32,000 nucleotides of DNA from Bacteroidaceae bacterium (GCA_963604935.1 CAVCRX010000061.1:143593-175592); one strand, 5' to 3'. Counted from the first letter of the stretch, positions 5,886-28,071 are shown. Program-made: numbers and translations. Notes: generated by a model from the sequence alone, not told the origin.

Positions 5886-5939
5886 ATAGCTAATCCTCCT
5901 TGAACCTCTCCATCGTTTACCCTTATCAGAACACCCTCC

Positions 5940-5967
5940 CCTATTATGTTCGTGCGTACATAATAGG
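5940..5967 (-). promoter_or_regulatory. Inverted repeat upstream of the fdh operon (candidate operator)
   Basis: CCTATTATGT (5940-5949) and ACATAATAGG (5958-5967) form perfect 10-bp arms with an 8-bp spacer, 55-80 nt upstream of the start at 5885. There is no T-tract, so it is unlikely to be a terminator. Confidence 0.3.
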
Positions 5968-6133
5968 TTATTAAGAAAGAATGCCGCGACCTTAGCCGTG
6001 GCACCTAACAGGTATGCTTGTCTGATTGAGTATTATGCACGCTCAGATGCAAAATACCGGATAATCTTTTCAAACATTGTTTAATCAAATGCAGCACATT
6101 TAAACGTGCTAGTAGCTGGAGCTTGCCTGGGAC

Positions 6134-6997
6134 TTAGTTGTCCTTCTTGTTGCGAGCAAAAGCAATCCAGTACAGCAGACCAACCAAGATAGATCCACCA
6201 ACAATATTACCCAGGGTGACAATTCCTAAGTTGTAGAAGATGGGACCCAGATCCAAAGCTCCGACGTTTGCAACATTTGCACCATAACCCAGAAGCTTTG
6301 CAAACCAGCCTTCAAACAGAAAGAACATGTTGGCAATACTATGTTCAAATCCGCAAGCAACGAAGGCAGTGATTGGCATTACGCAAGCAACAATCTTGTC
6401 TACCAGGGTTCGCGCACCAAAGGTCATCCAAACAGCCAGGCAAACCAAGAAGTTACACATGATTGCCTTGCAGAAAAGAGTCAAAGCATCGGGGGTTACT
6501 TTGGAAACTGCGGTGGCTACCATGGCGTCGCCTACTGCACCATTGTTCATTGCTGCCATTGCAGAGCCGCAAACAATTACCGCAAGAATTAGCGAGCCAA
6601 CAAAGTTGCCAATCCAAACAACTACCCAGTTGCGCAGCATGCCAGAAAGCTTGATTTTCTTACTGCCCAAGCCGCAAACCATCAAGCAGTTGCCGGTGAA
6701 GAGCTCGGAGCCGCAAACAACAACCAGCATCAGGCCAACCGAGAAGCATGAAGCGCCCATGACGCGCTTGATTGCAAAGGGGAGCTCTGTGTCGCCTTGA
6801 ACCAATGTAAAGAGTGTTGCACCACAACCAATAAACAAGCCTGCAGCAATAGCCAAAACAAACATGGTTATCGCATTCATGCCTGCTTTGCCGACTGCCA
6901 AAACTTCAGCTTTTGCTTCAATTTCAGCTGGAGCCAAAACATCAGGCTTAAGGGTCTTAACCTCAGCGGCGTCTAATGCCACTTCTACCACCTCCAT
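6134..6997 (-). CDS. focA: Formate/nitrite transporter family channel (FocA-like)
   Basis: 287 aa polytopic membrane protein with the FNT signature FEHSIANMFF, sitting immediately upstream of the FDH genes. An alternative GTG start at codon 6 is preceded by GGAGGTG. Confidence 0.85.
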   Translation of the reverse strand: MEVVEVALDAAEVKTLKPDVLAPAEIEAKAEVLAVGKAGMNAITMFVLAIAAGLFIGCGATLFTLVQGDTELPFAIKRVMGASCFSVGLMLVVVCGSELFTGNCLMVCGLGSKKIKLSGMLRNWVVVWIGNFVGSLILAVIVCGSAMAAMNNGAVGDAMVATAVSKVTPDALTLFCKAIMCNFLVCLAVWMTFGARTLVDKIVACVMPITAFVACGFEHSIANMFFLFEGWFAKLLGYGANVANVGALDLGPIFYNLGIVTLGNIVGGSILVGLLYWIAFARNKKDN

Positions 6998-7349: not shown

Positions 7350-7928
7350 TTAGCCAAAGTACCTCTTCAGCAAACCCTGGAAAGCCTGGCCGTGACGAGC
7401 CTCGTCGCGAGCCATCTCATGGATGCTATCGTGCAGAGCATCCAGATTCTGCTGCTTGGCAAGTTTGGCCATGTCGGTCTTAGCCTTGCAGGCGCCATTT
7501 TCGGCAGCAACGCGACGCTTCAGGTTTTCCTCGGTAGAATCGCTTACGATTTCGCCACCAATAAATTCAGCATAACGAGCGGCGTGACCAGCCTCTTCCC
7601 AGGCGGCAGTTTCGTAATAAGCGCCAACTTCAGGGTAGCCCTCGCGATAAGCAACGCGTGCCATTGCTAAATACATGCCGGCCTCGGAGCATTCGCCGTT
7701 GTACTCAGCACGAAGGAAGCTCTGCAGCTCAGCAGGAACTTCGTCAAGCATACCAACGCCAATGCGATGCTCGGAAGCCCAGACCAGATCCTCGCCGCCT
7801 TCTTCTGCAGGAGCCTGCTTCACAAACTTAGAACCAGGAACTTTGCAAACAGGGCAAACAAAATCAGCGGGAAGCTCGTCGCCATCAAATTCTTCTACAT
7901 AACCACAAACAGGACAAATAAACAGCAT
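7350..7928 (-). CDS. Reverse rubrerythrin (N-terminal rubredoxin-like domain, C-terminal ferritin-like diiron domain)
   Basis: I moved the start to ATG 7928, which has AAAGGAGA 7 nt upstream. The product begins MLFICPVCGY...CPVCKV, followed by diiron ExxH motifs (EEAGH, DEARH). Confidence 0.85.
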   Translation of the reverse strand: MLFICPVCGYVEEFDGDELPADFVCPVCKVPGSKFVKQAPAEEGGEDLVWASEHRIGVGMLDEVPAELQSFLRAEYNGECSEAGMYLAMARVAYREGYPEVGAYYETAAWEEAGHAARYAEFIGGEIVSDSTEENLKRRVAAENGACKAKTDMAKLAKQQNLDALHDSIHEMARDEARHGQAFQGLLKRYFG

Positions 7929-8323
7929 TGCGATCTCCTTTTCAGTAATGATTCCTAATAAGCTCACTAATTATATTATGCAAATTTCAGAAAGAAAAGG
8001 AAGACTTATGAAGAAGAAAATTAGTTAGCCACGGCTTACGCTTCTAGCTAGGAGTACAGCAAAATGTACAGCGCAAACAATTCGGTTTTAGTTTAAATAG
8101 CAATTAGATGCATTGCGCCCAGACTTTATACAAACAAGGCGCCGCTCAACCGATGATTTTACCCAAAACGCTCATGCCTTATGAACGGCGCCTTGCACAT
8201 ATAGTGCCTGGTAAATATAAATTTATCTAGTTACCTTAGGCTCAACTTTTGAATACCAATGGGGCAAGATTTTGAGTCCCTATAGTCCACTTTAAAGAAA
8301 CTTTTGTCCGTAGTGGCTCACAC

Positions 8324-9457
8324 ATGACCGCTGGAAATCATTACGGTCATTCGAGCTCAAAAGGCTCTTATTACAAGGACCTATTCTGCACAACATCTGG
8401 CACTTCTGCTTCCGCCACCTACAAAGGTGGAAACTGCTCGATGAACTTGTACCTTTACATCCCTACTTTCCCAGCATCACCTAAGAAAACCGCAGATAAA
8501 ACCAACACCAAAGTTGGTGACAACATAAAATGGTCTATCACTCGCGATATGCCCATCCTCTACACCGACACGCTTGCGTATTTAACCAAAACCATCATTT
8601 CTGACACTTTAGATTCTCGCTTAAGCTACGTTTCAGCAAAGGTTTATTACGACAAGACCGATGTGACCAACTTGGGAACGCTTAACGTAAGCGGTCAAAC
8701 TGTCACTTGGACAGCAAATTCAGCTTTCCTGGGTAACAGCACCTATTACACCGGCAAAGTTCTCAAGATGGAGCTAGTAACTCAGGTGAATGGTACTGGC
8801 AGTATCACAAATAGCGCCTTCGTAAATTACTACAACGATTCGGCAACGCAGAGAGAAACGACAAAAAGTGATGGCACTATCAATTATTACCGCGACTATC
8901 TAGCTGGCGATACTGACTCTGTATATACCGATAAAACCGACAACACTAAGACCGGTTACCAAGTCAACACCAATGCAACAAAGGCCGCGCAGCGCTCTGA
9001 TTGTGCAGGTCTTACCGACTGGTACACCGATCCAGAATGCACTCAAAAGTACACAGGCGATTGGATTCCAAGCAAAGAAAATAACTATACCCTCGATCTC
9101 TACTGCAAGAATAAAGTCACTCTTGGCTACGGGATTACAAGCGATTCCTATATGAAAACTCATCCGAACAAGACAATCTTCACTGATAGCTTAATGACTT
9201 CAACCGTCATTGATTACTCGAAGGTCTTGCCTGAAACTAAAACCTATTACTATGGGGACACGGTTGATTTCACTAAACTTTCTGACCTCTACTACAAACA
9301 TGCTGGTAGCTCTCACTTATTGGCTTGTTCTGATGGTATTTATGCTTACGAGGACGGAACAGGAGATATATTTACCCAAGTGCGCCTGACCTGCAATTCC
9401 ACCGCTTATTACAAGTGGAAAGGTGGAAATTATGACGGCGTTCTAACCACCAGCTAG
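8324..9457 (+). CDS. Surface-adhesin-like fragment (isopeptide/pilin-D2-like domain plus a Listeria-Bacteroides-type repeat); it has no signal peptide or sorting signal and may be a pseudogene
   Basis: 377-aa ORF. KTADKTNTKVGDNIKWSI...GSITNSAFVNYYND resembles isopeptide-forming adhesin domains, and CAGLTDWYTDPECTQKYTG resembles the GWYTD-type repeat. The frame opens only at 8276, after a TGA. The N-terminus (MTAGNHYGHSSSKG...) is not hydrophobic. Confidence 0.5.
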   Translation: MTAGNHYGHSSSKGSYYKDLFCTTSGTSASATYKGGNCSMNLYLYIPTFPASPKKTADKTNTKVGDNIKWSITRDMPILYTDTLAYLTKTIISDTLDSRLSYVSAKVYYDKTDVTNLGTLNVSGQTVTWTANSAFLGNSTYYTGKVLKMELVTQVNGTGSITNSAFVNYYNDSATQRETTKSDGTINYYRDYLAGDTDSVYTDKTDNTKTGYQVNTNATKAAQRSDCAGLTDWYTDPECTQKYTGDWIPSKENNYTLDLYCKNKVTLGYGITSDSYMKTHPNKTIFTDSLMTSTVIDYSKVLPETKTYYYGDTVDFTKLSDLYYKHAGSSHLLACSDGIYAYEDGTGDIFTQVRLTCNSTAYYKWKGGNYDGVLTTS

Positions 9458-9478
9458 TCTCTATCAATCAACAACCAA

Positions 9479-9510
9479 CAAAAAAGGCTGCTCACATGAG
9501 CAGCCTTTTT
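9479..9510. terminator. Bidirectional rho-independent terminator between convergent genes
   Basis: GGCTGCTC (9486-9493), ACAT loop, GAGCAGCC (9498-9505), flanked by an A-run upstream and T5 downstream. Confidence 0.75.
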
Positions 9511-9531
9511 CATGTCTATAACCAGCTTAGC

Positions 9532-11205
9532 TTACTTAGTCTTAACTGACTTTTTGCCAGACCAGCCGGAATAGTATGTCTTACCATTCACTACCTTGTA
9601 GGTACGAACTTGTACGTAATACTTCTTCTTTTTCTTGAGCTTGGAAATCTTCTTGCTCGTAGTTTTAGCGGATGCAACCTTAACAGTCTTAGCTGACTTC
9701 ATATTGCTTTTTAAGCTATAGCGAATCTGATATCCCGTGACCCCAGACTTCTTATTCCACTTGACGGTAAACGCCTTCTTGGCCTTCTTCAACGACTTAA
9801 TCGCGGTAGCAGAAGGATTAGAAACCTTTGTAGTGGTTGCAGCAGGGATAATTGTCACGGTGCTACCATCAGGTGTGGTCCAAGAATTATTATCGGGGTT
9901 AATTACCCAGCCAGAATCATTAGAAACACTCAGCGTCATGGTTTTGCTTACAGCTTCATAATCATCGGTTCCAGCAAACTCAACGGTAATCTTAGTAGTG
10001 CCAGACTTTAGGGGAGTAACAACACCACTTGTAGAATCCACCGTAGCAACTGAAGTGTCACTAGATGTATATTTTGCCGCCGTACCAGAGCTAGACTTTG
10101 CACTCAGCGTAAACTTACCATCGCTAAGCTTGACAGACTTCTCAGAATCAAACCCGCTGATAGTGGGGGTGTCTTTGTCTTTAACTGTAATGGTATAAGC
10201 AACCTCTTTGCCAAGTGCTGTATTTGTCAAAACAGCCGTACCAGCCTTTAATCCCGTTACTGTATTCCCATCTAGCTTTACCACATCGGAACCAGATTTA
10301 ATAAACCAATTGCCGAGGGATACTTGAAGAGAAGGGTTGAAACAAAGGCCTTTGATTCTTACCGTGCAGGTTACGGGAAGTGAGATAGATTTATTATTTT
10401 TTATCGATTTAGACAAGTCTTCATCTTGGATAACAAATTTATAATAATCAATATAGCTTTTTGCGATCGAGACGCTTACAGCTTTCTTTGCATCATCTAA
10501 ACCTGAAATCTCATTGGTAGCAGAGCCTAACTCCATTGCCCAATACCTAACCCCATTATGTTCAAAACAGGCGATACCAACAGCTGTATATGTGGTTCCT
10601 AGCATATTACGACGATGACCTTGGCCGTTGTAGTCGCAGCTATCCTCACGCCAAGACTCAAAAGCCGCTTTTGCATCAAAGAGCTCCTCTTTAACATTAA
10701 AAGCAGGATTTGCCTCAATATCATTACTTGCCACGATATTTTCGCCTGTCGCAGTTTTGCCTGAAGAAGAAATTACGGTATTGTAGCTCTTCCCATTAGG
10801 GCGCTCGTGTTCAAATCTAACAGCAATTTCTGCTGCCCTCTGCATAGCAATTTCTTCAAGCTCAGAGTCCCACTTGAGTTCTTTCAGTCCCGTAACGTAT
10901 TGCCTGTGACCAGACTCGTCATAGTAAGACCAAACGTTACTAGCTTTCTTGTTGCCGTCCTCGTCATAAGCCCACGGTGTATTCCCGTCGTTGTAGTCAA
11001 TTTCAGCAGTCCTAAACTTATTCACCATCGCGAGCATCGAATAAGCGTCTGATTGGTGATAAGTACCCTCAATAGTCACGTCATACAGCTCGTCATCTGC
11101 CCACGCCTGGCTAGCGCTACCAACAAGCCCACAACCACACATCACCAAAGCCGCAGCAAGTAACACCGCAGCCCTTCGAAGCTTCAATCCAAAACAAATA
11201 TTCAT
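9532..11205 (-). CDS. Secreted CAP/SCP (PR-1-like) domain protein with Ig-like (Big_2-type) repeats and a Lys-rich FN3-like C-terminal module
   Basis: 557 aa. Signal peptide LLAAALVMCGCGLVGSASQAWA. CAP-type motif GHRRNMLGTTYTAVGIACFEHNGVRYWAMEL. Big_2-like KYTSSDTSVATVDSTSGVVTPLKSGTTKITV. The C-terminal 89 aa contain 27 Lys. Confidence 0.8.
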   Translation of the reverse strand: MNICFGLKLRRAAVLLAAALVMCGCGLVGSASQAWADDELYDVTIEGTYHQSDAYSMLAMVNKFRTAEIDYNDGNTPWAYDEDGNKKASNVWSYYDESGHRQYVTGLKELKWDSELEEIAMQRAAEIAVRFEHERPNGKSYNTVISSSGKTATGENIVASNDIEANPAFNVKEELFDAKAAFESWREDSCDYNGQGHRRNMLGTTYTAVGIACFEHNGVRYWAMELGSATNEISGLDDAKKAVSVSIAKSYIDYYKFVIQDEDLSKSIKNNKSISLPVTCTVRIKGLCFNPSLQVSLGNWFIKSGSDVVKLDGNTVTGLKAGTAVLTNTALGKEVAYTITVKDKDTPTISGFDSEKSVKLSDGKFTLSAKSSSGTAAKYTSSDTSVATVDSTSGVVTPLKSGTTKITVEFAGTDDYEAVSKTMTLSVSNDSGWVINPDNNSWTTPDGSTVTIIPAATTTKVSNPSATAIKSLKKAKKAFTVKWNKKSGVTGYQIRYSLKSNMKSAKTVKVASAKTTSKKISKLKKKKKYYVQVRTYKVVNGKTYYSGWSGKKSVKTK

Positions 11206-11330
11206 ACGTAAAATCCTGTCTCATATGCCAAAACACTTAATTAATCTTTACCACAGAACAAGACTAAATACCTATATCTTTGCGGCTTTAAAGCAACATT
11301 GAACGGCAAATGATTGATTGACGGGTAACA

Positions 11331-11366
11331 ACAAACAAAAAGGAAGCAGGTCATCATCCTGCTTCC
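11331..11366 (-). terminator. Rho-independent terminator of the lipoprotein gene
   Basis: GGAAGCAGG (11342-11350) pairs with CCTGCTTCC (11358-11366). On the minus strand it is followed by TTTTTGTTTGTT. Confidence 0.65.
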
Positions 11367-11439
11367 CTATTACTCAAAAAAAAGATCGAACCTTAAAAAT
11401 AGCTGTCAGCCCATAAAACCTGACGCATTTATACCTCGT

Positions 11440-11892
11440 TTATTCCCTGCTGAGTTCAACTGTAGTCGTCGTTCCCATCATTGAAGCTTTATAGGAAAGC
11501 ACTCCGTTGCTATAGGAGAAATCTTTAGTGTCATCCATGGAAGCAAGGAGAGCAGATTCCGTCTTTTCTTTATCCCTCTCGCTTGTGAAGTCATAGCTAT
11601 CATCGGTGGTGTCGGGCTTTGGGAAAGATCCAACCCAATAAATGGACTCTGTTTTCCCGTTATCCATAACCCAGTTAATGGTAATTACATCGTCTTCGAT
11701 CGTAGCCTCCATGTATGTATCTTCGCTGGAGCTATTGCTTTGCTTCCATTTTCCGTCCAAAGACAAAAGAGCCTTCTGTTCTTGGGTTCCATTATTTTGT
11801 TCACCAGTATTTGATGTCGAAGAACATGCACACAGAGCAAAAACACAAGAAAAGACAACCAAGAATGCTCCGAATTTTGCTATAGATTTCAT
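11440..11892 (-). CDS. Small lipoprotein of unknown function
   Basis: 150 aa. MKSIAKFGAFLVVFSCVFALCAC SSTSN has a lipobox-like LCAC followed by a Ser/Thr/Asn-rich linker. AAAGGAA RBS. Confidence 0.7.
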   Translation of the reverse strand: MKSIAKFGAFLVVFSCVFALCACSSTSNTGEQNNGTQEQKALLSLDGKWKQSNSSSEDTYMEATIEDDVITINWVMDNGKTESIYWVGSFPKPDTTDDSYDFTSERDKEKTESALLASMDDTKDFSYSNGVLSYKASMMGTTTTVELSRE

Positions 11893-12118
11893 TTAAGTTC
11901 CTTTCAAAGTTGACAGAAGCGCTAATGATCCAGTCCAAGCTCTTCCGCCTTACACAAATAGAGCTTAAATCTATCGCAGTTTGAGAAAATGAGAGGGAAT
12001 CAGAGTTCCCACTTGAAACAAAAAAATCAAGCGTTTTCAGTTTTAAATAAACCGCAGAAACAACCACCAGGGTCTGGCGGCATAAAGGCAAAGTAAATAC
12101 CGATCAAATCAAAATCGT

Positions 12119-12158
12119 GGCACGAAAAAGAACTCCCTTTAGGATTCTTTTTCGTGCC
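12119..12158 (-). terminator. Strong hairpin in the AT-rich spacer, probably the terminator of the cI-like transcript
   Basis: A 14-bp stem pairs GGCACGAAAAAGAA (12119-12132) with TTCTTTTTCGTGCC (12145-12158). On the minus strand it is followed by ACGATTTTGATTTG. Confidence 0.45.
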
Positions 12159-12417
12159 TATTAATAAACATAAATACAACTAAATAAATGCACTCGTTTT
12201 ACATACTCTCTTTTATTTAGATAAATTATCTGAGCCAGCAAGGTTCGCTTGCGAGTAGCGCTTTACCAAAAAGATTTACTAATACATAAAATCTTATCTG
12301 CCTTAGCAGCGATTGCTAGCATCGGAAACTTTATTTTTTTTAATTACAGGAATATAAGCAAGATAAACGAATGGCAAAAAAGCAAAAAACAGCGTTTGAT
12401 AACCAATCAATTTTCTA

Positions 12418-13044
12418 TTAGTCATGATTCACCTCCATACAGAGGTAGCGAACAACGCCTAAAATCTGCAACTCTGGGGTTTTTGGCGCGGTGGTATCCA
12501 CAATGAAGCGAGTGAAACCTTCTTCCCATGTATCAGGGGAAAAGATATAAACACCTTCAACCTCACGCATTGTGCGCAGTTCTGGCTTGCAGCTATCAAC
12601 AGAAACTAAAACAATATCTCCGTCTTGCGGTTCATCATATATATCTATAAGTACATCACACCCAGCAGGGATACGTTTTCCCATTGCGTTGTTTGGCATG
12701 GTCATAAAATAATTGCCACTACTGCAAAGTTCAGGCGGCGCAAGAATAGACTTTCCGTTTTCGTGTGGAACTAAAGTTTTTATTGGTGACGGTTCTGAAT
12801 TTTTATTTAAGCCAGTTGACGTGCTATAGAATCCATTTGTTACACCAAATAGCTCATCTTCACCGCAACTAAGCACCTTATATAGACAATTCAGGGTTTC
12901 CACGCTTTTAGGCTTTACACCCCTGCTCTCCCAACCACTTATTGTGATTGGAGTAACACCTATTGCATCAGCAAGTTCAGATTGCGTCATGCCTTTGTTT
13001 AGTCTTAATGCGCGTAGGTTTCTACCAAATGTAGTGTTCTTCAT
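12418..13044 (-). CDS. cI/LexA-like repressor: N-terminal XRE-family HTH plus a C-terminal S24-peptidase-like domain (catalytic residues apparently not conserved)
   Basis: 208 aa with a GAAGGAGG RBS. HTH: LRLNKGMTQSELADAIGVTPITISGWE. S24-like region: MPNNAMGKRIPAGCDVLIDIYDEPQDGDIVLV...LQILGVV. Confidence 0.8.
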   Translation of the reverse strand: MKNTTFGRNLRALRLNKGMTQSELADAIGVTPITISGWESRGVKPKSVETLNCLYKVLSCGEDELFGVTNGFYSTSTGLNKNSEPSPIKTLVPHENGKSILAPPELCSSGNYFMTMPNNAMGKRIPAGCDVLIDIYDEPQDGDIVLVSVDSCKPELRTMREVEGVYIFSPDTWEEGFTRFIVDTTAPKTPELQILGVVRYLCMEVNHD

Positions 13045-13068
13045 AAAAAACCTCCTTCAACTATAAGC

Positions 13069-13137
13069 ATAGTTTAGTTTATATAATAGTCAATTATCTG
13101 GAAAATAACTATTGCTTAACCTTATAGTTTGATTTAT
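13069..13137. promoter_or_regulatory. Divergent switch region with two copies of ATAGTTTNNTTTAT (candidate operators) and a TATAAT box
   Basis: ATAGTTTAGTTTAT sits at 13069-13082 and ATAGTTTGATTTAT at 13124-13137. The outer flanks form an inverted AAGCATA...TATGCTT. TATAAT is at 13082-13087 on the plus strand. Confidence 0.35.
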
Positions 13138-13166
13138 GCTTGAACAAGCGAAAGGAGGGTAACGGT

Positions 13167-13430
13167 ATGAGTAATTGCTTAAAAGCGTCTCGTGTGGCGA
13201 GCGGTTTAAGGCAGGAAGATATAGCAAAACACCTGAACATAGCTACAGGAACAGTTTCTACATTCGAAGGGAATGTTGAGCAAATTCGTCTACGAGATTT
13301 TAAACGATGGTTTAATCTTTGTTCAGATGAAGGTAAGGCTGTTATTAGGGAATACCTTCGGACTAGTTTTTTTAACCATAAACTAAAAGGAAATATTATA
13401 ATAAGACAAGAAAACAATGAACGAGTTTAA
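13167..13430 (+). CDS. Cro-like XRE-family HTH protein
   Basis: 87 aa from ATG 13167, with AAAGGAGGG 7 nt upstream. HTH: LRQEDIAKHLNIATGTVSTFE. It is divergent from the cI-like gene. Confidence 0.7.
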   Translation: MSNCLKASRVASGLRQEDIAKHLNIATGTVSTFEGNVEQIRLRDFKRWFNLCSDEGKAVIREYLRTSFFNHKLKGNIIIRQENNERV

Positions 13431-13521
13431 ATACCAGTCAAATCGACACTGCGAGTCAAAATACGGCCTAGCCAAAAATGTTCCTTTGGGAACGCTCCGT
13501 AGGGAGCAATCTGACTTGCCA

Positions 13522-13549
13522 AGAGCCCCAGTTGGGGCTCTTTTATTTT
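13522..13549 (+). terminator. Rho-independent terminator
   Basis: AGAGCCCC (13522-13529), AGTT loop, GGGGCTCT (13534-13541), then TTTATTTT. Confidence 0.7.
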
Positions 13550-13702
13550 ACGAGAGATCCCCTGCTCTAGTAGTTATAAGCCCAAATAAATGACGAGTGA
13601 ACAGCAAGTTAGAGCATACGGATACACCCATTGGCAAGCTAACATATTGAGATTTACAGCGTGTCCAACAGACTACTCAGACAAGCAAATTTTAAAAATA
13701 AT

Positions 13703-14686
13703 TTACCCCAGGCCCTGCAAGATCTCTTCCAAATAAGCCTTGTAGACCTTCTTCAGGCTTGCGGGATGCTCGATTGTCACATGCGTTCCGCGCTCGGCCA
13801 ACCAAGCAAAAAAGGTAGGCGACTCCATCACCACCGCATGAACGCGAGCGTGCTTATCATCAACAGGCGTTGTCACAACGTCTATACCAAAACGGTCGAT
13901 CACAGCACCCATCGCAAGGTCATCAACAATAAAAGTAGCCGAAACAACTTCGCCGGTATACATTCCGAACGAACGATTGGCGTACTCGGCCAAATCGAAA
14001 TTTGCCAGCTTTTTATTACGGCTAGCAGGCTCTTCACAAACCTCGATACTCAACATGCGATCAAGGCGATAATTAGCAAAGTCGTCATACTTGTCGGAAT
14101 AGGCAACCAAATAATAGCAATCGTTAACGTAAGCCAGTTGCACAGGCGTAGCCACATAACGCTGCCCATCGCGACGCAAAACGCGCTCCTTCTTCACATC
14201 GTAGCGAAAGTACAAAAAGCTGATTTTGCGCTTGTCTGCCAATGCCCTTTGAATAGCATCCAGATTGTAGAACACCGATTCGTTCTGCATCTTTATGCGG
14301 CCTTCAACGTGCAAGCGATGATTCAAATCTTCCTGCTGGCACTGCGAAGCAAGCGACTTAATAGCCTTCACCAAGCTTGCCGACTTACCCTCGGTCAAAA
14401 AGCGTGAACTTTGCACTGAATCAACCAACAAACGTAGCTCGCCTTCGCTAAAGGGGCGCGAAACCAAGGCATATTGCACCGGCGACGTGCGTAAACGCTC
14501 AATCTCAAAACCACAAGAATCCAGCGCTTCAAGGTCGCGATAGATTGCCTTACGCTCAGCATCAATCCCGCGCTCAGCCAGAGCCTGAATAATCTGCGGC
14601 ATAGTAAGCCCGCGCTCTTCGTCGGTCTGACTAAATAAAATCTTAAGGAGTTCTAGCAGCTTTGTTTTTTGGTTACTTTGGGCCAT
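13703..14686 (-). CDS. WYL-domain transcriptional regulator (wHTH-WYL-WCX architecture)
   Basis: 327 aa with an AAGGAG RBS. N-terminal wHTH: LTMPQIIQALAERGIDAERKAIYRDLEAL. WYL-like core: ISFLYFRYD...YYLVAYSDKYDDFANYRLDRM. It lies 21 nt downstream of the MFS gene on the same strand. Confidence 0.8.
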   Translation of the reverse strand: MAQSNQKTKLLELLKILFSQTDEERGLTMPQIIQALAERGIDAERKAIYRDLEALDSCGFEIERLRTSPVQYALVSRPFSEGELRLLVDSVQSSRFLTEGKSASLVKAIKSLASQCQQEDLNHRLHVEGRIKMQNESVFYNLDAIQRALADKRKISFLYFRYDVKKERVLRRDGQRYVATPVQLAYVNDCYYLVAYSDKYDDFANYRLDRMLSIEVCEEPASRNKKLANFDLAEYANRSFGMYTGEVVSATFIVDDLAMGAVIDRFGIDVVTTPVDDKHARVHAVVMESPTFFAWLAERGTHVTIEHPASLKKVYKAYLEEILQGLG

Positions 14687-19872: not shown

Positions 19873-20568
19873 ATGAAAGCTATCGCACATATTCACACTG
19901 ATTATCACCAAAAGTTTGGCATCCCCCGCAATGCTGGGCTCGCCGCAGATACTCAAGGCACCATCGTGTTTGAACCCGAGTTCGCCAACCCCGAGGCAGT
20001 GCGCGGCTTGCAAGAGTTTAGTCATCTTTGGCTTATTTGGCAGTTCGAAAATACCGATCGCGATCACTGGCGTCCGACCGTTCGTCCGCCGCGCCTGGGT
20101 GGATCCCGTCGCATGGGAGTGTTTGCCACGCGCTCCCCTTTTAGGCCAAACCCACTGGGTCTTTCCTGCGTAAAACTTGATTCTGTTGAGATTATCGATG
20201 GTATTCCTTATGTCCACGTTTTAGGGGCTGACCTGCGCGATAACACTCCTATTTTCGATATTAAGCCCTACTTGCCCTTTGCCGACTGCCACCCCGAAGC
20301 CAATGGGGGCTGGACCGACGACGAACCTTGGCAACCGCTCGAGGTGGATTTCCCCGACGAAGAGCTTGCAAAAGTTAAAGAAGAAAAGCAGGCAGGCCTT
20401 ATCGAGGCACTTGCGCAAGACCCCAGGCCTCCCCTACAAAACGACCCAAGCAAAACTTACGCCATGGCTTTTGCAGGTTACAACGTTCGCTTTACCGTAG
20501 ACGAGCCAGTGCTTCACGTTGTCCAGGTAGAAACGCTTGATGCAGGCACCTTTGGCTTTGACCTGTAG
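19873..20568 (+). CDS. trmO: TsaA/TrmO-family tRNA (m6t6A37) methyltransferase
   Basis: 231 aa. IAHIHTDYHQKFGIPRNAGL...FSHLWLIWQFE...RPPRLGG..MGVFATRSPFRPNPLGLS is typical of the YaeB/TsaA fold. Confidence 0.8.
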   Translation: MKAIAHIHTDYHQKFGIPRNAGLAADTQGTIVFEPEFANPEAVRGLQEFSHLWLIWQFENTDRDHWRPTVRPPRLGGSRRMGVFATRSPFRPNPLGLSCVKLDSVEIIDGIPYVHVLGADLRDNTPIFDIKPYLPFADCHPEANGGWTDDEPWQPLEVDFPDEELAKVKEEKQAGLIEALAQDPRPPLQNDPSKTYAMAFAGYNVRFTVDEPVLHVVQVETLDAGTFGFDL

Positions 20569-22400: not shown

Positions 22401-23000
22401 CTAACGTGCAGCCTTGATTGCCTCGAGCAAATCATTGTAGTTATCAAAGGCAGGGACCTGGGGGTATTCCTGCTTGATGGCTTCGGTCGTATTAAACAAA
22501 AAGCCCGTTTTGCCGTTCAGAATCATGCCCAGGTCGTTGTGGCTATCGCCAACACAAATTGGCTCCATGCCGCAGCTCTGCAAAGCCTTGATAGTTGTTA
22601 GTTTGCTCTGTTCGCAGCGCATTTTGTAGTTAGTGATTTTGCCGGTTTCATCGGTAATCAAGCTATTGCAGAAGATAGTAGGATTGCCCAGCTTGGCCAT
22701 CAAAGGAGCAGCAAACTGCTCAAAGGTGTCCGAAACAATGATGACGGAAATTTCTTTTTCCAACGCGTCCAAGAATTCCTTAGCGCCAGGCAGCGGATCA
22801 AGCGTCTGCGCAACCTTTTGGATGTCGGGCAAGGTCATTCCATGCTCAGCCAGAATTTCTAAGCGATAACGCATGAGCTTGTCGTAATCGGGTTCGTCAC
22901 GCGTAGTTTTACGGAGCTCAGGGATTCCCGCCGCATCGGCAAAAGCAATCCAAATTTCAGGAAGTAATACACCTTCAAGATCTAGGCATGCAACATTCAT
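22401..23000 (-). CDS. thrH: ThrH-like HAD hydrolase (phosphoserine phosphatase/homoserine phosphotransferase family)
   Basis: 199 aa with a GAAGGAG RBS. MNVACLDLEGVLLPEIWIAFADAAGIPELRKTTRDEPDYDKLMRYRLEIL...IIVSDTFEQFAAPLM...GDSHND closely follows the ThrH pattern as I recall it. Confidence 0.8.
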   Translation of the reverse strand: MNVACLDLEGVLLPEIWIAFADAAGIPELRKTTRDEPDYDKLMRYRLEILAEHGMTLPDIQKVAQTLDPLPGAKEFLDALEKEISVIIVSDTFEQFAAPLMAKLGNPTIFCNSLITDETGKITNYKMRCEQSKLTTIKALQSCGMEPICVGDSHNDLGMILNGKTGFLFNTTEAIKQEYPQVPAFDNYNDLLEAIKAAR

Positions 23001-23375: not shown

Positions 23376-24203
23376 CTAAAGGCGGCGCAAGACCAGATAT
23401 TTATTAAGGTTGCCCGTGCGCCCGTCGGCGTCAAATTGAGCTTCAAGCTCTGCGCATCCGGTATTAGCAAGCGCCAAAATCAATGCGTCAATTTCTTCAT
23501 TACTAAAGGAATGGCAATAGCGATAAACACCTGATACTTTTTGCCAACCAAGAAGGTGGTCCCCTACTTCAAGATCTTCTTCGTCTAGCTGCAAATCAAG
23601 CAAGGCTTGCTCGCGCAGATCCTGGGCTTGTTCAGCCAGTTTGGGGCTCTTCATAAATTGCCAGAAAGAAACAACTATCACACCACCCGGGCGGACCAAT
23701 TCGCAAAGCGAACGCAGAACAAATTCGCGCGTGCTAGCACCAGGCACATGATGCATAAAACCAAAGCAGACCAAGGCATCTGGCTGTACCGCAGAATGGA
23801 TATCTAAGAGTGGCGTCTGATCAAGAGCTTGTGTGATTAGATCGAGGTCTTGAAATGAGGCTAGTTTTATCTTTGACGAGACCTCATCAAGTAAATCTGG
23901 ACGCGCTTGATTAAGCAAGTCAGCACCATAATCTATAGCACTAAGCTCAACCGTAAGCTCTGGACACTTCATCTTAAGATAGGACTCAAAACGCAAGTTT
24001 CCGCATGCCACATCCATTAAGTTTAAGGAAGGGTTTGCGAGGCCAAGCAGGGTTGTGGTACTCGCTGCAACAGACTCCAAATAAGGCAAGCACTTAGCCC
24101 AGCCAGGCCAGCCCGCTTGACGCGTCTGCGAAAATGATTGCGCCTGCTCCGCGTAAAAGCGGCTTGTAGCAGCATTGAGTATGTTGGCGACTCGGCGTTC
24201 CAT
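23376..24203 (-). CDS. Class I SAM-dependent methyltransferase with Trm9/ALKBH8-like motifs (candidate tRNA cm5U34 methyltransferase)
   Basis: 275 aa from ATG 24203 (MERRVANILN...). Motifs: SFSQTRQAGWPGW, LMDVACGN, ELVRPGGVIVVSFWQF, YRYCHSFSNEEI. A TAAAAT box lies 7 nt upstream of the ATG, so the transcript may be leaderless. Confidence 0.7.
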   Translation of the reverse strand: MERRVANILNAATSRFYAEQAQSFSQTRQAGWPGWAKCLPYLESVAASTTTLLGLANPSLNLMDVACGNLRFESYLKMKCPELTVELSAIDYGADLLNQARPDLLDEVSSKIKLASFQDLDLITQALDQTPLLDIHSAVQPDALVCFGFMHHVPGASTREFVLRSLCELVRPGGVIVVSFWQFMKSPKLAEQAQDLREQALLDLQLDEEDLEVGDHLLGWQKVSGVYRYCHSFSNEEIDALILALANTGCAELEAQFDADGRTGNLNKYLVLRRL

Positions 24204-24241
24204 GTGCCAGATTTTAGCCCAAGACCCGTATAATGGCAGCC
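24204..24241. promoter_or_regulatory. 38-bp divergent control region with two back-to-back -10 boxes, each 7 nt from an ATG
   Basis: Plus strand: TATAAT 24229-24234, 7 nt, ATG 24242. Minus strand: TAAAAT (plus 24211-24216), 7 nt, ATG 24203. Neither start has a Shine-Dalgarno sequence. Confidence 0.45.
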
Positions 24242-26083
24242 ATGGAAAATGCACTAGTCGACATACTTACCCAGCTTCGCCAAGGCGCCGAACTCTCGCC
24301 AGACGATGTGGCGAAAATCATTCGCTCGCACAACGCTGGTATTCGCGATAACTCAAAACGCTGCAGCAAAAAGAAGCTTCTTCGTTTTTACTTTGACAGC
24401 AAGAATTCCACACCTGAACTTTGGAAAAGCTGGAATGTCGATGACACTCTTGAAGCCGCCTTCTTGCGCACGCTACGCGCCAAGCCAAGACGCACCGCTT
24501 CTGGAGTGGCAACTATCACGGTAATCACAAAACCCTGGCCCTGCGAGGGTAATTGCGTTTTTTGCCCCAATGACCTGCGCATGCCCAAAAGCTACGTTCA
24601 TAACGAGCCGGCCTGCCAACGCGCCGAGCGCAACTTCTTTGACCCTTATCTTCAGATTGCCTCGCGCCTACAAGCGCTTACCCAGATGGGTCACATTACC
24701 GACAAAGTTGAACTCATTGTGCTTGGCGGAAGCTGGACTACTTATCCCAGTGCTTATCAGCGCTGGTTCATCAAACGCCTCTTTGAGGCCTTAAATGATG
24801 CAGGTGCGCCAAGCGATACTGCGGCTAATCTTGCCGAAGAAAAGGCTGTCAGGCTTCGTAAAAACTACGAGTCTTGGGGCTTTACCACTAACGACGACGA
24901 ACTAAACGCCTTTGTTGGTGCAGAACAAGCTAAGCTCAACAATGGCGAAACAAGCTACAACCAGGCCTTCAAGCTCTTATACGAGGGAGACTCACGCTGG
25001 CAGCAGCTTGGTAATTCTCAGACCGCAAGCTGGGAAGAGTTGGAGCGCCAGCAAGAGCTCAACGAATTTGCCGCTCATCGCTGCGTTGGTCTGGTAGTCG
25101 AAACTCGACCCGACGCCATTAACGCGCAAGCCTTAGCGGACACACGCCATTTGGGCTGCACAAAAATCCAGATTGGCGTGCAAAGCACCTGCGAAGAAAC
25201 GCTCGCGAAAAATGGGCGCCATATGACAAACGAGCAGCTTACTCAGTCCTTTGAGCTGCTGCGTCTTTTTGGCTTTAAAACACATACTCACTTTATGGCA
25301 AACCTTGTTGGCGCAAGCCCCGAGCTTGATGCCAAGGATTACGAGCGCTTTGTAACTAGCCCACGCTTTAAGCCCGATGAAGTGAAGCTCTACCCTTGCG
25401 TTCTTTTGGGTGGCACTCAGCTTGAAGCCCTACACGCTGAAGGAAAATGGAGCGCTTACTCCCCCAATCAGCTGCAATGGCTCATGACGCAAAATCTTGT
25501 AGCGACGCAGCCTTATACGCGCGTCAGCCGCATGATTCGCGACTTTAGTGCGCAAGACATCATCCAAGGAAACCGAACCGCCAATCTAAGGCAATTGATT
25601 GAAGCTCAGGTTGCTAATGAAGGCGGCCAGATTCAAGAAATTCGTCATCGCGAAGTAGCTGGAGCCACCTTCGACGCTGATGAACTTAGCTTGGATATCA
25701 TCGAGTACGACACCACCGCAACAACCGAATTCTTCTTGCAGTGGGTAACGCCAGAAAATCGCATTGCGGGATTCTTGCGTCTTTCACTGCCTAAAGAGGA
25801 AGCCTTTGAGCGATATCGCGCCGGAGCAGATCTTTTGCCTACCAGCGCAAATGATGCCATGATTCGTGAAGTGCACGTCTATGGAAAAGTTGAGCGCCTA
25901 CACGAAGCAAAAGAAGGCACACAGCATCTTGGCCTGGGACGAAAGCTTGTTGCACGCGCTTGCGATATCGCACGCGAACACGGACGCACTAAAATCTTCG
26001 TGATTAGCGCAGTGGGAACCCGAGAGTACTATCGCAAACTGGGCTTTGGCGACAACGGCCTCTATCAATCAAAAGCGCTTTAG
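24242..26083 (+). CDS. elp3: Elp3-family radical-SAM/GNAT enzyme (tRNA uridine-34 carboxymethylation type)
   Basis: 613 aa from ATG 24242; the track start at 24233 lies inside the TATAAT box. Motifs: KPRRTASGVATITVITKPWPCEGNCVFCPNDLRMPKSYVHNEPA...FDPYLQ...LIVLGGSWTTYP, and a C-terminal GNAT region QHLGLGRKLVARA. Confidence 0.85.
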   Translation: MENALVDILTQLRQGAELSPDDVAKIIRSHNAGIRDNSKRCSKKKLLRFYFDSKNSTPELWKSWNVDDTLEAAFLRTLRAKPRRTASGVATITVITKPWPCEGNCVFCPNDLRMPKSYVHNEPACQRAERNFFDPYLQIASRLQALTQMGHITDKVELIVLGGSWTTYPSAYQRWFIKRLFEALNDAGAPSDTAANLAEEKAVRLRKNYESWGFTTNDDELNAFVGAEQAKLNNGETSYNQAFKLLYEGDSRWQQLGNSQTASWEELERQQELNEFAAHRCVGLVVETRPDAINAQALADTRHLGCTKIQIGVQSTCEETLAKNGRHMTNEQLTQSFELLRLFGFKTHTHFMANLVGASPELDAKDYERFVTSPRFKPDEVKLYPCVLLGGTQLEALHAEGKWSAYSPNQLQWLMTQNLVATQPYTRVSRMIRDFSAQDIIQGNRTANLRQLIEAQVANEGGQIQEIRHREVAGATFDADELSLDIIEYDTTATTEFFLQWVTPENRIAGFLRLSLPKEEAFERYRAGADLLPTSANDAMIREVHVYGKVERLHEAKEGTQHLGLGRKLVARACDIAREHGRTKIFVISAVGTREYYRKLGFGDNGLYQSKAL

Positions 26084-26113: not shown

Positions 26114-26569
26114 TTAAAACTCAATATCCGCATAGCAAACGCCGTATTCTTTCTGCATCCAGGCAAAAAATTCATCGCCATCGAGCACTTTGATAGCGGA
26201 GTTTTTATAGTCGTCCTTGTTGCGTGTAATTATTGCATCTGCGGCAATAGACTTTGCAGCCTGGTATACGCACGCATCTTCAAAATCAGACCAGTCAGAT
26301 TCAAGAGCAGCGTCTATTTCTTTAGTACCAACTGGGGCAATACGAATATACTCACGAAGCTCGCGTAGCACCTGCTTAGCTTCGTTAAGCTTACCCTTCT
26401 TCCCTCCGTTTGAAAGAATGTAGGCCGTGTCTGTAAGTTGAGAAGAGCTCATATACAAATCAAACTCACAGAGCTTTCCCATAATAAGAAGAAGACGAGC
26501 CACGTCGCAATAAGGCTCCCGCTTTAAGCTATGGTCGAGCAAGATATTGGTATCCACGAGAAGCTTCAT
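26114..26569 (-). CDS. PIN-domain toxin (VapC-like ribonuclease)
   Basis: 151 aa. MKLLVDTNILLD...FEDACVYQAA...IITRN carries the PIN acidic residues. The ATG overlaps the antitoxin stop (ATGA at 26566-26569). Confidence 0.8.
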   Translation of the reverse strand: MKLLVDTNILLDHSLKREPYCDVARLLLIMGKLCEFDLYMSSSQLTDTAYILSNGGKKGKLNEAKQVLRELREYIRIAPVGTKEIDAALESDWSDFEDACVYQAAKSIAADAIITRNKDDYKNSAIKVLDGDEFFAWMQKEYGVCYADIEF

Positions 26570-26886
26570 AATTCGCCGCCTCCCTCAAGTTCACTCTTGA
26601 GCCTTAAACGCTTAGCTTCCTTGGTACTTAAGACGGCAACCGAAGGATCGATATCCTGAATTACTAAAGAATCAACCATCCTGGCTGCATCTTGAATTTG
26701 CTTTTTGGAGTACTTATTTAGACCGAATTCTTTATTTTGCGAAAACGGAAGACGCTTGTGCGAAATGACATAATCGTACAATTCGTTAACCGTTTGAGAT
26801 GCATTTGTACCCAGCTGCGCAAGAATTTGGTTGCCAAGTTCCTTTTTCTCGGAAGACATGCGCGCCGTAACCATTGAGTCAGCCAT
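26566..26886 (-). CDS. RelB/DinJ-like (RHH) antitoxin
   Basis: 106 aa from ATG 26886, with AGGTGA 6-7 nt upstream. MADSMVTARMSSEKKELGNQILAQLGTNASQTVNELYDYVISHKRLPF resembles the DinJ N-terminus. It overlaps the PIN gene by 4 nt. Confidence 0.7.
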   Translation of the reverse strand: MADSMVTARMSSEKKELGNQILAQLGTNASQTVNELYDYVISHKRLPFSQNKEFGLNKYSKKQIQDAARMVDSLVIQDIDPSVAVLSTKEAKRLRLKSELEGGGEL

Positions 26887-26908
26887 TAAGATCACCTGCT
26901 TAAACCTT

Positions 26909-27027: not shown

Positions 27028-28071
27028 ATGCGTGAATTTAACTACTGCTCTACGCCAGATGCTTTGCGCCAAGACAATGTTTTGCAGCTTCTTCTTTCGC
27101 TGCGCGAGTCTAAAGGACGCCAGGTTTCTCTTAAAGATACCCCACCAAAACTATTAAGCGCCATGCATGAACAAACTCGTTATGCCAGCACCGAGGCTTC
27201 TAATAGCATTGAAGGCATTATCACCAGCAAAGCTCGCTTAAAGCAACTTGTTGCCGATCAAGTTCAGCCAAAAACCCGCAGCGAAGAAGAGATTGTAGGC
27301 TACCTAGACGCTCTTAAGCTCATCTACGAAGAGTATGAATTTATGCCTATTAAGCCCTCGGTGATTTTGCAGATTCACCGCGACTTAATGAAGTACACCG
27401 GCTTGTCGTACGGCGGCAAATGGAAAGATAGCGACAATCAAATTATCGCCCGCCACAAAGATGGCAGCTGTTCTATGCGCTTTACTCCAACCACTGCCCT
27501 AGCAACACCTGACGCCATGGATTCCCTTTGCGAAAGCTACAATCGCGCAATAGCAGAAGGGGTAAGTGATCCACTTTTAATATCGATACGCTTTGTGTTT
27601 GACTTCTTATGCATTCATCCATTTAACGATGGAAATGGGCGCATGAGCAGGATCTTGACTACGCTTCTTTTAGAAAAATGCGGCTATGTTGTACCGCGCT
27701 ATATAAGTATCGAAGAGATTATCAATAATAATGTTGAGCTTTATTACGAAAGCCTGGCCGAAAGTTCGATTGGCTGGGATCAGGGCCTTAACGATGAGTC
27801 TCATTTTGTGTCATACATGTTTGGCACAATAGCGGCTGCATATTACGACCTTTATGATTGCGTAGAAGCCAGTGCCAAAGCGTCAACAAAAGCACAACGC
27901 ATTGCCGATAGTTTTGAGTACTTTATCGGAAGAGTTTCGAAAGAAGACATTCGTAAGCGTTGCCCTGACATCAGCGACACCAGCATAGAGCGCGAATTAA
28001 AGAATTTGCTTGACCAGGGCAAAATCAAAAAAGTAGGCGGTGGACGAACCACCGCCTATGTGAAGATTTAG
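27028..28071 (+). CDS. Fic-family protein (AMPylase-type), class II with an N-terminal inhibitory helix motif and a C-terminal wHTH-like tail
   Basis: 347 aa with an AAAGGAGAAAGC RBS. Fic motif HPFNDGNGRMSR (27616-27651). Inhibitory (S/T)xxxE(G/N) motif SNSIEG (27199-27216). Confidence 0.9.
   Translation: MREFNYCSTPDALRQDNVLQLLLSLRESKGRQVSLKDTPPKLLSAMHEQTRYASTEASNSIEGIITSKARLKQLVADQVQPKTRSEEEIVGYLDALKLIYEEYEFMPIKPSVILQIHRDLMKYTGLSYGGKWKDSDNQIIARHKDGSCSMRFTPTTALATPDAMDSLCESYNRAIAEGVSDPLLISIRFVFDFLCIHPFNDGNGRMSRILTTLLLEKCGYVVPRYISIEEIINNNVELYYESLAESSIGWDQGLNDESHFVSYMFGTIAAAYYDLYDCVEASAKASTKAQRIADSFEYFIGRVSKEDIRKRCPDISDTSIERELKNLLDQGKIKKVGGGRTTAYVKI

Follow-up and report, generated by a model that had tools for sequence, protein, structure and literature searches.

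A linked elp3 and Trm9-like methyltransferase gene pair of Coriobacteriia: a candidate bacterial module for wobble-uridine modification

Formation of 5-carboxymethyluridine at the wobble position of tRNA (cm5U34) has been shown for archaeal Elp3 and for the eukaryotic Elongator complex. The subject here is a pair of divergent genes, one for a stand-alone Elp3 homologue and one for a class I methyltransferase resembling Trm9, at positions 23376-26083 of a 32,000-nt stretch of DNA (CAVCRX010000061.1:143593-175592; ‘the window’ means this whole stretch). By its named homologues and the loci retrieved from other genomes, the window belongs to Coriobacteriia, a class of actinobacteria. A preliminary description of the same stretch took the two genes for a wobble-uridine pathway of eukaryotic or archaeal style, encoded as a unit in a bacterium. 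The present analysis supports that interpretation, in that the checks run were favourable or neutral and none refuted it. On balance, we think it rather likely that the pair is a two-gene tRNA modification module characteristic of Coriobacteriia, with a full two-step course: Elp3 makes cm5U34, and the methyltransferase converts it to the methyl ester, 5-methoxycarbonylmethyluridine (mcm5U34).

To our knowledge, the Elp3 of Dehalococcoides mccartyi (DmcElp3) is the only bacterial one that has been studied structurally. Bacterial Elp3 is said to be rare, the case studied being Dehalococcoides (PMC6367351, PMC7663514); a 2020 review of Elongator presents Dehalococcoides as the bacterial clade with Elp3, and attributes the lack of direct evidence of xcm5U nucleosides in bacteria to the difficulty of culturing it (PMC7663514); a 2026 paper speaks of Elp3 in ‘numerous bacteria’ (PMC13315578). 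In archaea, genes for Elp3 and a Trm9-family protein cluster in Sulfolobus solfataricus (PMC2584109), and the Haloferax volcanii Trm9 (HVO_1032), with Trm112, is responsible for mcm5U in vivo and methylates tRNA of a yeast trm9-delta strain in vitro (PMC6144793). A 2020 compendium lists cm5U and mcm5U in Archaea and Eukarya only; it also describes CmoM (SmtA), a bacterial class I methyltransferase that converts uridine 5-oxyacetic acid at position 34 (cmo5U34) to mcmo5U34, with a carboxyl methyl ester on the U34 side chain (PMC7694415). MnmG, near-universal in other bacteria, is found in 0 of the 74 Actinobacteria genomes in COG (PMC5954106, Table 2), a set that we infer to include Coriobacteriia. 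A literature search returned no paper combining Elp3 with Coriobacteriia and none describing a bacterial Elp3-Trm9 pair; the preliminary description likewise knew of no characterised module of this kind.

Genomic linkage is the strongest evidence that the two genes belong together. Screening of GTDB at one representative genome for each species found at least 555 genomes that encode a relative. The best 80 loci span Slackia, Eggerthella, Gordonibacter, Adlercreutzia, Raoultibacter, Senegalimassilia, Collinsella, Olsenella, Olegusella and Atopobium/Lancefieldella. Three lie on contigs too short to judge; in 73 of the 77 that can be evaluated the methyltransferase gene has an elp3 gene no more than 6 kb away. 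Most often it is directly upstream and divergent, with a gap of 14-367 bp (median 91), as in 58 of the 80; in 12 the genes are divergent with 0.7-5.7 kb inserted between them, and in 3 they are linked in some other arrangement, co-directional or downstream. The remaining 4 lack elp3, although their contigs extend 2.5 kb or more upstream. The methyltransferases at these loci are 35-43% identical to the window protein, and the genes are neighbours in three families: Atopobiaceae, Coriobacteriaceae and Eggerthellaceae. All-against-all clustering of open reading frames (ORFs) over the 80 loci gave no third conserved gene family beside the pair; the small ORFs that cluster frequently lie inside the two genes themselves, apparently as shadow ORFs. 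Since no other flanking family is conserved, it is the pair itself that selection appears to have kept together. Such pairing is far beyond chance, and the co-occurrence and adjacency on which the preliminary description had staked its reading hold up across the three families.

Five loci with a pair of the Coriobacteriia type sit in bins with Firmicutes titles (Oscillibacter, Agathobacter rectalis, Butyrivibrio, Faecalibacterium ‘cleanbin’). Mis-binning is the most likely explanation, so that they are not evidence for the pair outside Coriobacteriia.

Both ORFs of the pair have the coordinates and orientation given in the preliminary description, and both translations (275 and 616 aa) are identical to proteins annotated in an NCBI assembly. 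The start that it had chosen for elp3, ATG 24242, is the second in-frame ATG and corresponds to Met4 of the annotated protein.

To judge from its profile matches, the plus-strand product is a bona fide Elp3. It scores 406.2 bits against the NCBIfam model TIGR01211 (ELP3), where the curated trusted cut-off is 350, and covers model positions 15-522 of 522; Pfam recognizes Radical_SAM, Radical_SAM_C and Acetyltransf_1. Its best solved relative in PDB is archaeal MinElp3 (6ia8, E 6e-80), followed by the human, mouse, Dehalococcoides and yeast proteins, the E-values together ranging from 1e-68 to 6e-80. The Elp3 hallmarks and the GNAT domain named in the preliminary description are borne out by these matches and by the cysteine triad of the radical S-adenosylmethionine (SAM) site; the strings that it quoted, KPRRTASGVATITVITKP (aa 84-101) and, following it, CEGNCVFC, are both present. 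Two features set the protein somewhat apart. The CX3CX2C cysteine spacing is one residue shorter than the CX4CX2C of MinElp3, and is kept in the Elp3s of the clade (as seen in 13 sequences of an alignment covering up to 32 loci). An insertion of about 78 aa, not present in any solved Elp3 (archaeal, Dehalococcoides, yeast, mouse or human), is found across the clade (gap fraction 0.08), with weak sequence conservation (28% identity to the window sequence). Archaeal and eukaryotic Elp3s have a basic N-terminal extension that serves tRNA binding; in the window protein about 75 residues, 12 of them Lys or Arg, precede the catalytic core, and this region is modestly conserved in the clade, at 34-40% identity to the window sequence.

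The product name attached to TIGR01211 reads ‘tRNA uridine(34) 5-carboxymethylaminomethyl modification ... Elp3’, which names cmnm5U, the product of MnmE and MnmG, and not the cm5U chemistry of Elp3. This inconsistency will spread into bacterial annotations.

The methyltransferase belongs to a large family: about 500 clusters at 90% identity in a word-indexed search, and 1,614 clusters at 50% identity (E<=1e-30) in an exhaustive search of representatives, which gives family size only, the best 150 matches all lying within the same family. Its conserved blocks are SFSxTRQxxWPGW, LDxACGNLRF, FGFMHHVPG, VSFWQF, GDYLLGW, YRYCHSF and ADGRTGNLNxYLVL. When a profile built from 32 members was searched against 177,635 PDB sequences, the first match was Yarrowia Trm9 (5cm2_Z; E 8.8e-7, 31.6 bits), with the next at 4.8e-5 (25.9 bits); 5cm2_Z takes first place even though the crystal construct is without the N-terminal motif. 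Full-length Trm9 of Saccharomyces cerevisiae (ScTrm9; the query is 100% identical to a database Trm9p) matches the family HMM (hidden Markov model) at 37.7 bits in three collinear segments. In hhalign comparisons, the family aligns to the single ScTrm9 sequence with 97.8% probability (E 8.9e-13), and to a profile of 20 yeast Trm9 sequences with 98.4% probability (E 7e-15) over 217 columns, nearly the full length, at ~22% identity. Two controls in single-sequence mode aligned over the core only: Escherichia coli UbiG (provisional sequence) at E 2.3e-8, and CmoM (unverified sequence) at 46.5% probability and E 2e-4. Against these controls, Trm9 comes out far ahead.

The motifs by which the preliminary description had compared this protein with Trm9 and ALKBH8 were accurate: the consensus of the 20 yeast sequences reads HFSQTRYKPWP, IDVGCGNGKY and KYRYYHLYKKGEL. 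The counterparts that it quoted from the window protein, SFSQTRQAGWPGW, MDVACGN (aa 63-69) and YRYCHSF (aa 227-233), are all present. A JGI record for one family member already carries an automatic ‘TRM9’ label; automatic annotation has thus caught sight of the link to Trm9, which, as far as we can see from the literature search, has not been studied. The long members of the family were looked at as possible Rosetta-stone fusions and proved uninformative, having variable inserts only, apart from a single 437-aa member with a C-terminal 6-O-methylguanine DNA methyltransferase DNA-binding domain, which is either a real fusion or a gene-calling artefact.

Mutagenesis of ScTrm9 found eight residues to be required for activity: R29, D72, H116 (H116A is inactive), W145, W168, R241, Y243 and N271. 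In the model of that enzyme, R29, H115/H116 and R241 surround the cm5U carboxylate, N271 and W145 contact the uracil, and Y18 lies nearby (Letoquart et al., PMC4678810). Six of the eight are kept in the window protein by both HMMER and hhalign alignments: R29 as R28, the SAM-binding acidic residue D72 as D91, H116 as H152 (with H115 as H151), W145 as W181, R241 as R228, and N271 as N267; Y18 is also conserved, as Y17, and H244 corresponds to H231 in the YRYCHSF segment of the lid. (A residue mapping by mafft --add --keeplength was discarded, having dropped yeast residues and shifted the numbering.) All of the conserved Trm9-equivalent positions are invariant or nearly so within the family, among them R28 and Y17, which share the N-terminal region with the equally constant F24 and W32. 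Motif I, D64-x-x-C-G-N, is invariant and aligns by hhalign to D51/G55 of ScTrm9; D260, G261 and N267 near the C-terminus are invariant too.

The AlphaFold2 (AF2) model of the protein (predicted local distance difference test score 94.5) is a seven-stranded class I fold. Two lid strands, 215-219 and 227-231, sit between beta5 (175-181) and a helix at 235-248; R228, C230 and H231 lie on the second of them, and N267 begins the last strand. In Trm9, the two-stranded antiparallel lid, betaA and betaB, likewise lies between beta5 and alphaE (PMC4678810). The topology is the same, although a lid of this kind is not unique to Trm9.

Several results nonetheless weigh against identifying the pair with the Elp3-Trm9 pathway. 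The likeness of the methyltransferase to Trm9 is remote and visible to profiles only: Pfam offers generic models (Methyltransf_11/12/25, with Methyltransf_12 at 32 bits), NCBIfam has no match, and a single-sequence phmmer search of PDB gave GNMT and UbiG only, at E>0.2, with no Trm9. In the reverse direction, an HMM of yeast Trm9 only scores family members at 9-41 bits (best 40.8) and does not match the window protein at all; the non-Trm9 PDB proteins 1ve3 (38 bits) and 3ege (36.5 bits) are on a par with the family there. In reciprocal phmmer and hmmsearch runs from yeast Trm9, just a few family members outscore non-Trm9 PDB proteins, so that reciprocity with yeast TRM9, which the preliminary description had proposed as a check, fails to separate the family from other methyltransferases. 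Foldseek with the AF2 model found 841 PDB matches at E<=0.001, dominated by small-molecule class I methyltransferases, with Trm9 in 16th place; the list is not discriminating. A profile of the isolated C-terminal lid retrieves no Trm9 from PDB. (Nor does one of the isolated N-terminal region, as expected from a Trm9 crystal construct without that segment.) As neither the reverse search nor Foldseek nor the lid profile singles out Trm9, orthology is not proven; the protein is better called a distant Trm9-like homologue in which an active site of Trm9 type is conserved.

Trm112 raises a further difficulty. Eukaryotic Trm9 needs Trm112 as a partner. Haloferax Trm9 needs it as well, in vivo (PMC6144793), and no conserved small Trm112-like ORF lies beside the pair in the 80 loci, in keeping with what the preliminary description had said of the window; a regular expression for the Trm112 signature, admittedly a crude test, found nothing in six frames of the window and the 80 loci. 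The literature search, moreover, found no cm5U-type nucleoside reported from bacteria. Within the active site, two of the eight essential residues do not follow. Y243 is replaced by C230, and nearly all members of the family have Cys at this position (YRYCH for YRYYH); the yeast Y243A enzyme keeps about 10% of its activity and the strain is zymocin resistant (PMC4678810). W168, on lid strand betaA, has a doubtful counterpart in W220: hhalign sets this segment against the yeast insert, although D215-x4-W220 of the family, on the first lid strand, does resemble D163-x4-W168 of ScTrm9. The earlier claim of Trm9 likeness holds, then, for the family profile, the hhalign comparison and six of the eight essential residues, and does not hold for the yeast HMM or for Y243. 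The profile searches are similarly divided: Elp3 passes its family model, and the methyltransferase is generic in Pfam, yet its family profile finds Trm9 first in PDB.

One alternative would keep the methyltransferase in an Elp3 pathway and give it other chemistry: methylation of another atom of the Elp3-modified nucleoside, action at a neighbouring position of the anticodon loop, or action on a cm5U derivative unknown from eukaryotes. Conserved linkage demonstrates functional coupling and does not give the reaction. The pocket differs from that of Trm9 at the Y243 position, G34, W35, D215, G261 and Y269 are invariant residues of the family with no Trm9 counterpart, the AF2 model has a helix (aa 187-203) between beta5 and the lid, and Trm9 does not stand out when the profile search is run in reverse. 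But the equivalents of R29, H115/H116, R241, N271 and W145 are all kept, invariant or nearly so, which is hard to square with a different substrate atom, and we consider such a variant unlikely.

A second alternative supposes a generic small-molecule or protein methyltransferase with no role in tRNA modification, the motifs being coincidental and the adjacency an inherited shared promoter region. In its favour are the generic or missing Pfam and NCBIfam assignments, the predominance of small-molecule enzymes among the Foldseek matches, and the fact that neither of the short motif regions, N-terminal or C-terminal, is significant alone. It accounts poorly for the rest: the pair is kept across deep divergence (35-43% identity, three families) while other neighbours change; the linkage survives rearrangement to other orientations; Trm9 comes first in PDB for the family profile; and six essential positions of Trm9 coincide both in order and in topological location. 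We regard this as quite improbable. Least probable is that the Elp3 homologue has some role outside tRNA (as a protein acetyltransferase, or in another radical-SAM reaction) and that the pair is no wobble-uridine pathway: the clade-specific 78-aa insertion and the CX3CX2C spacing, unseen in solved Elp3s, and the very weak in vitro activity of bacterial DmcElp3 (PMC7663514) could be cited for it, but the match to the curated ELP3 model is full-length and above the cut-off, and the conserved partner of the protein resembles the next enzyme of the tRNA pathway.

The two-step pathway preferred here builds on membership of the Elp3 family, on a distant homology to Trm9 in which the catalytic constellation is conserved, and on conserved linkage, and would run as follows. 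In the first step, for which family membership is the ground, the stand-alone Elp3 would use its radical-SAM domain and acetyl-CoA bound by the GNAT domain to place a carboxymethyl group on C5 of U34, giving cm5U34. In the second, for which the grounds are the linkage and the conserved active-site residues, the methyltransferase would transfer a methyl group from SAM to cm5U, giving the ester mcm5U34; R28, H151/H152 and R228 would hold the carboxylate of cm5U, and N267 and W181 the uracil. In some tRNAs the product might also carry a 2-thio group. MnmG being reported absent from the phylum, the pair would supply the xm5U34 function of MnmE and MnmG. A wider scenario we advance only tentatively: Coriobacteriia may have replaced MnmE/MnmG by an Elp3 route of archaeal/eukaryotic type, so that their tRNAs carry mcm5U34 or its 2-thio form, mcm5s2U34, made with a Trm9-like enzyme that is naturally independent of Trm112. 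No earlier case of this modification would then be known from bacteria, and the pair was perhaps acquired from archaea as a unit.

The spacer between the two genes is very short (29 bp), so that they are probably co-regulated. On the plus strand, a perfect TATAAT (24229-24234) reaches 2 nt into the annotated elp3 start codon and ends 7 nt ahead of the second ATG, 24242, a position that suggests 24242 as the true start. On the minus strand, TAAAAT (24216-24211) ends 7 nt ahead of the methyltransferase ATG at 24203; a promoter scan also picked up a promoter-like site on this strand of the spacer. The spacing of the hexamers to the start codons suggests back-to-back, overlapping divergent promoters, from which both genes would probably be controlled together, and possibly leaderless mRNAs from both. 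Coordinates of the pair, its parts and its neighbours are collected in Table 1.

Table 1. The gene pair, its predicted functional elements and neighbouring genes in the window
Feature	Coordinates	Strand	Remarks
elp3, radical-SAM/GNAT tRNA wobble-uridine carboxymethyl synthase homologue	24233..26083	+	616 aa; alternative start ATG 24242; TIGR01211, Pfam and PDB matches
Trm9-like class I SAM-dependent methyltransferase, predicted tRNA cm5U34 carboxyl methyltransferase	23376..24203	-	275 aa; family profile, hhalign, AF2, elp3 linkage
Divergent intergenic spacer	24204..24232	.	29 bp; two back-to-back -10-like hexamers; sequence reading
Elp3: radical-SAM [4Fe-4S] cysteine triad C104-x3-C108-x2-C111, CEGNCVFC (aa 104-111)	24542..24565	+	direct reading
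Elp3: insertion of ~78 aa (aa 191-268) within radical-SAM domain	24803..25036	+	PDB alignments split (query 76-190, 269-615)
Elp3: C-terminal GNAT (KAT) domain	25727..26059	+	Pfam Acetyltransf_1, aa 499-605
Elp3: acetyl-CoA motif QHLGLGRKL	25922-25948	+	aligns to MinElp3 QHMGYGRML
Methyltransferase: N-terminal motif SFSQTRQAGWPGW (aa 23-35), substrate-binding by likeness to Trm9	24099..24137	-	HMMER, hhalign
Methyltransferase: GFMHHVPG, H151/H152 as putative catalytic His pair at carboxylate site	23739..23762	-	invariant; aligned to Trm9 HH
Methyltransferase: two-stranded lid, GDHLLGW (aa 214-220) and YRYCHSF (aa 227-233)	23505..23564	-	AF2; YRYxH by HMMER and hhalign
Methyltransferase: C-terminal DADGRTGNLNKY, D260 and N267 aligned to ScTrm9 D270 and N271	23397..23432	-	hhalign
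TrmO	19873..20568		2.8 kb from the pair
ThrH-type phosphoserine phosphatase/homoserine phosphotransferase	22401-23000		NF010109, 282 bits; just downstream of methyltransferase
PIN/RelB toxin-antitoxin pair	26114-26895		PIN-domain toxin 26114-26569, RelB-like antitoxin 26566-26895; between elp3 and Fic gene
Fic/DOC family protein, possible C-terminal helix-turn-helix (HTH)-like domain	27028-28071		syntenic with related metagenome-assembled genome

The closest relative, a Coriobacteriia metagenome-assembled genome (54-64% identity), has the same wider synteny, with ThrH and TrmO included. It is without the PIN/RelB pair, and Fic there adjoins elp3 directly; the toxin-antitoxin pair of the window looks like a recent insertion. 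The preliminary description had pointed to trmO, another tRNA-modification gene, some 3 kb away. The distance is about right, but as a member of the module trmO has to be rejected: the synteny is found in the closest relative only and not across the clade, and the proximity is probably incidental. ThrH, too, lies near the methyltransferase in the closest relative and in about 10 of the 80 scanned loci, far less consistently than Elp3, and has no obvious functional link to the pair. A secreted transglutaminase/fn3 protein is also encoded among the genes around the pair.

Farther off, the stretch from 8000 to 14000 has a G+C content of 0.39-0.43 against about 0.50 elsewhere in the window; its genes include those for putative surface proteins (one with an Sgo0707 N2 domain, one with CAP plus fn3) and for regulators of HTH and WYL/WCX type, and the stretch may be a variable or horizontally acquired region. 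Positions 1271-6997 appear to hold a gene cluster for formate metabolism, coding for a molybdopterin oxidoreductase resembling formate dehydrogenase (941 aa), a 610-aa NADH-dependent Fe-S flavoprotein and a formate/nitrite transporter of FocA type; a rubrerythrin gene is found nearby at 7350-7967.

Wobble modifications of the cm5U type have so far been assigned to Archaea and Eukarya; the pair suggests that they occur in bacteria as well. The module is present in hundreds of Coriobacteriia species, including the human gut and oral genera Eggerthella, Slackia, Collinsella, Lancefieldella/Atopobium and Olsenella, and many Coriobacteriia are cultured. Because it occurs in common, cultured genera, whether bacteria make (m)cm5U34 is directly testable. 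If the proposal is right, it would reveal by what route U34 is modified in members of a phylum that has no MnmG, and would provide a simple two-protein system, Elongator-free and possibly Trm112-free, for studying the chemistry of Elp3 and Trm9. Thousands of database entries named ‘class I SAM-dependent methyltransferase’ could then gain a proper annotation.

Among known systems, two bacterial ones serve U34. MnmE and MnmG, which make 5-carboxymethylaminomethyluridine or 5-aminomethyluridine (cmnm5U/nm5U34), act at the same position, where an xm5U34 side chain tunes wobble decoding, but the enzymes and the chemistry (GTPase, flavin adenine dinucleotide, folate with glycine or ammonium) are unrelated. 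Because MnmG is found in none of the 74 Actinobacteria genomes, the Elp3 module is a candidate non-orthologous replacement of MnmEG. CmoM is, like the methyltransferase here, a class I enzyme, and a carboxyl on the U34 side chain is the predicted target in this case as well; unlike it, CmoM receives its substrate from CmoA/CmoB and not from Elp3, and its sequence (unverified) is weakly related, with no significant full-length similarity.

With DmcElp3 (PDB 5l7j; match E 1e-75) the window protein shares its nature as a bacterial stand-alone Elp3. The N-terminus of DmcElp3 is short (PMC6367351), whereas the window protein has about 75 residues before the core and, in addition, the 78-aa insertion. 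The archaeal system offers a parallel, with an Elp3 that stands alone, without other Elongator subunits, and with MinElp3 as best solved relative; the differences are the bacterial host and the lack of a linked Trm112 gene.

Another parallel is the eukaryotic system of Elongator with Trm9-Trm112 or ALKBH8-TRMT112: the same two families, in the same predicted order, and a methyltransferase that shares with eukaryotic Trm9 the FSxTRxxWP, DxxCGN, HH, W, YRYxH and C-terminal D...N elements. Unlike it, the bacterial genes are physically paired, with no Elp1/2/4/5/6 and no linked Trm112; Elp3 carries its insertion, Y243 has become Cys, and the methyltransferase has an extra helix between beta5 and the lid, whereas yeast Trm9 has a low-complexity insert between the lid strands. 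The module is not categorically new: it is best seen as the known Elp3-to-Trm9 pathway in a bacterial form, with a highly divergent methyltransferase, no linked Trm112 and a clade-specific insertion in Elp3 as its variant features.

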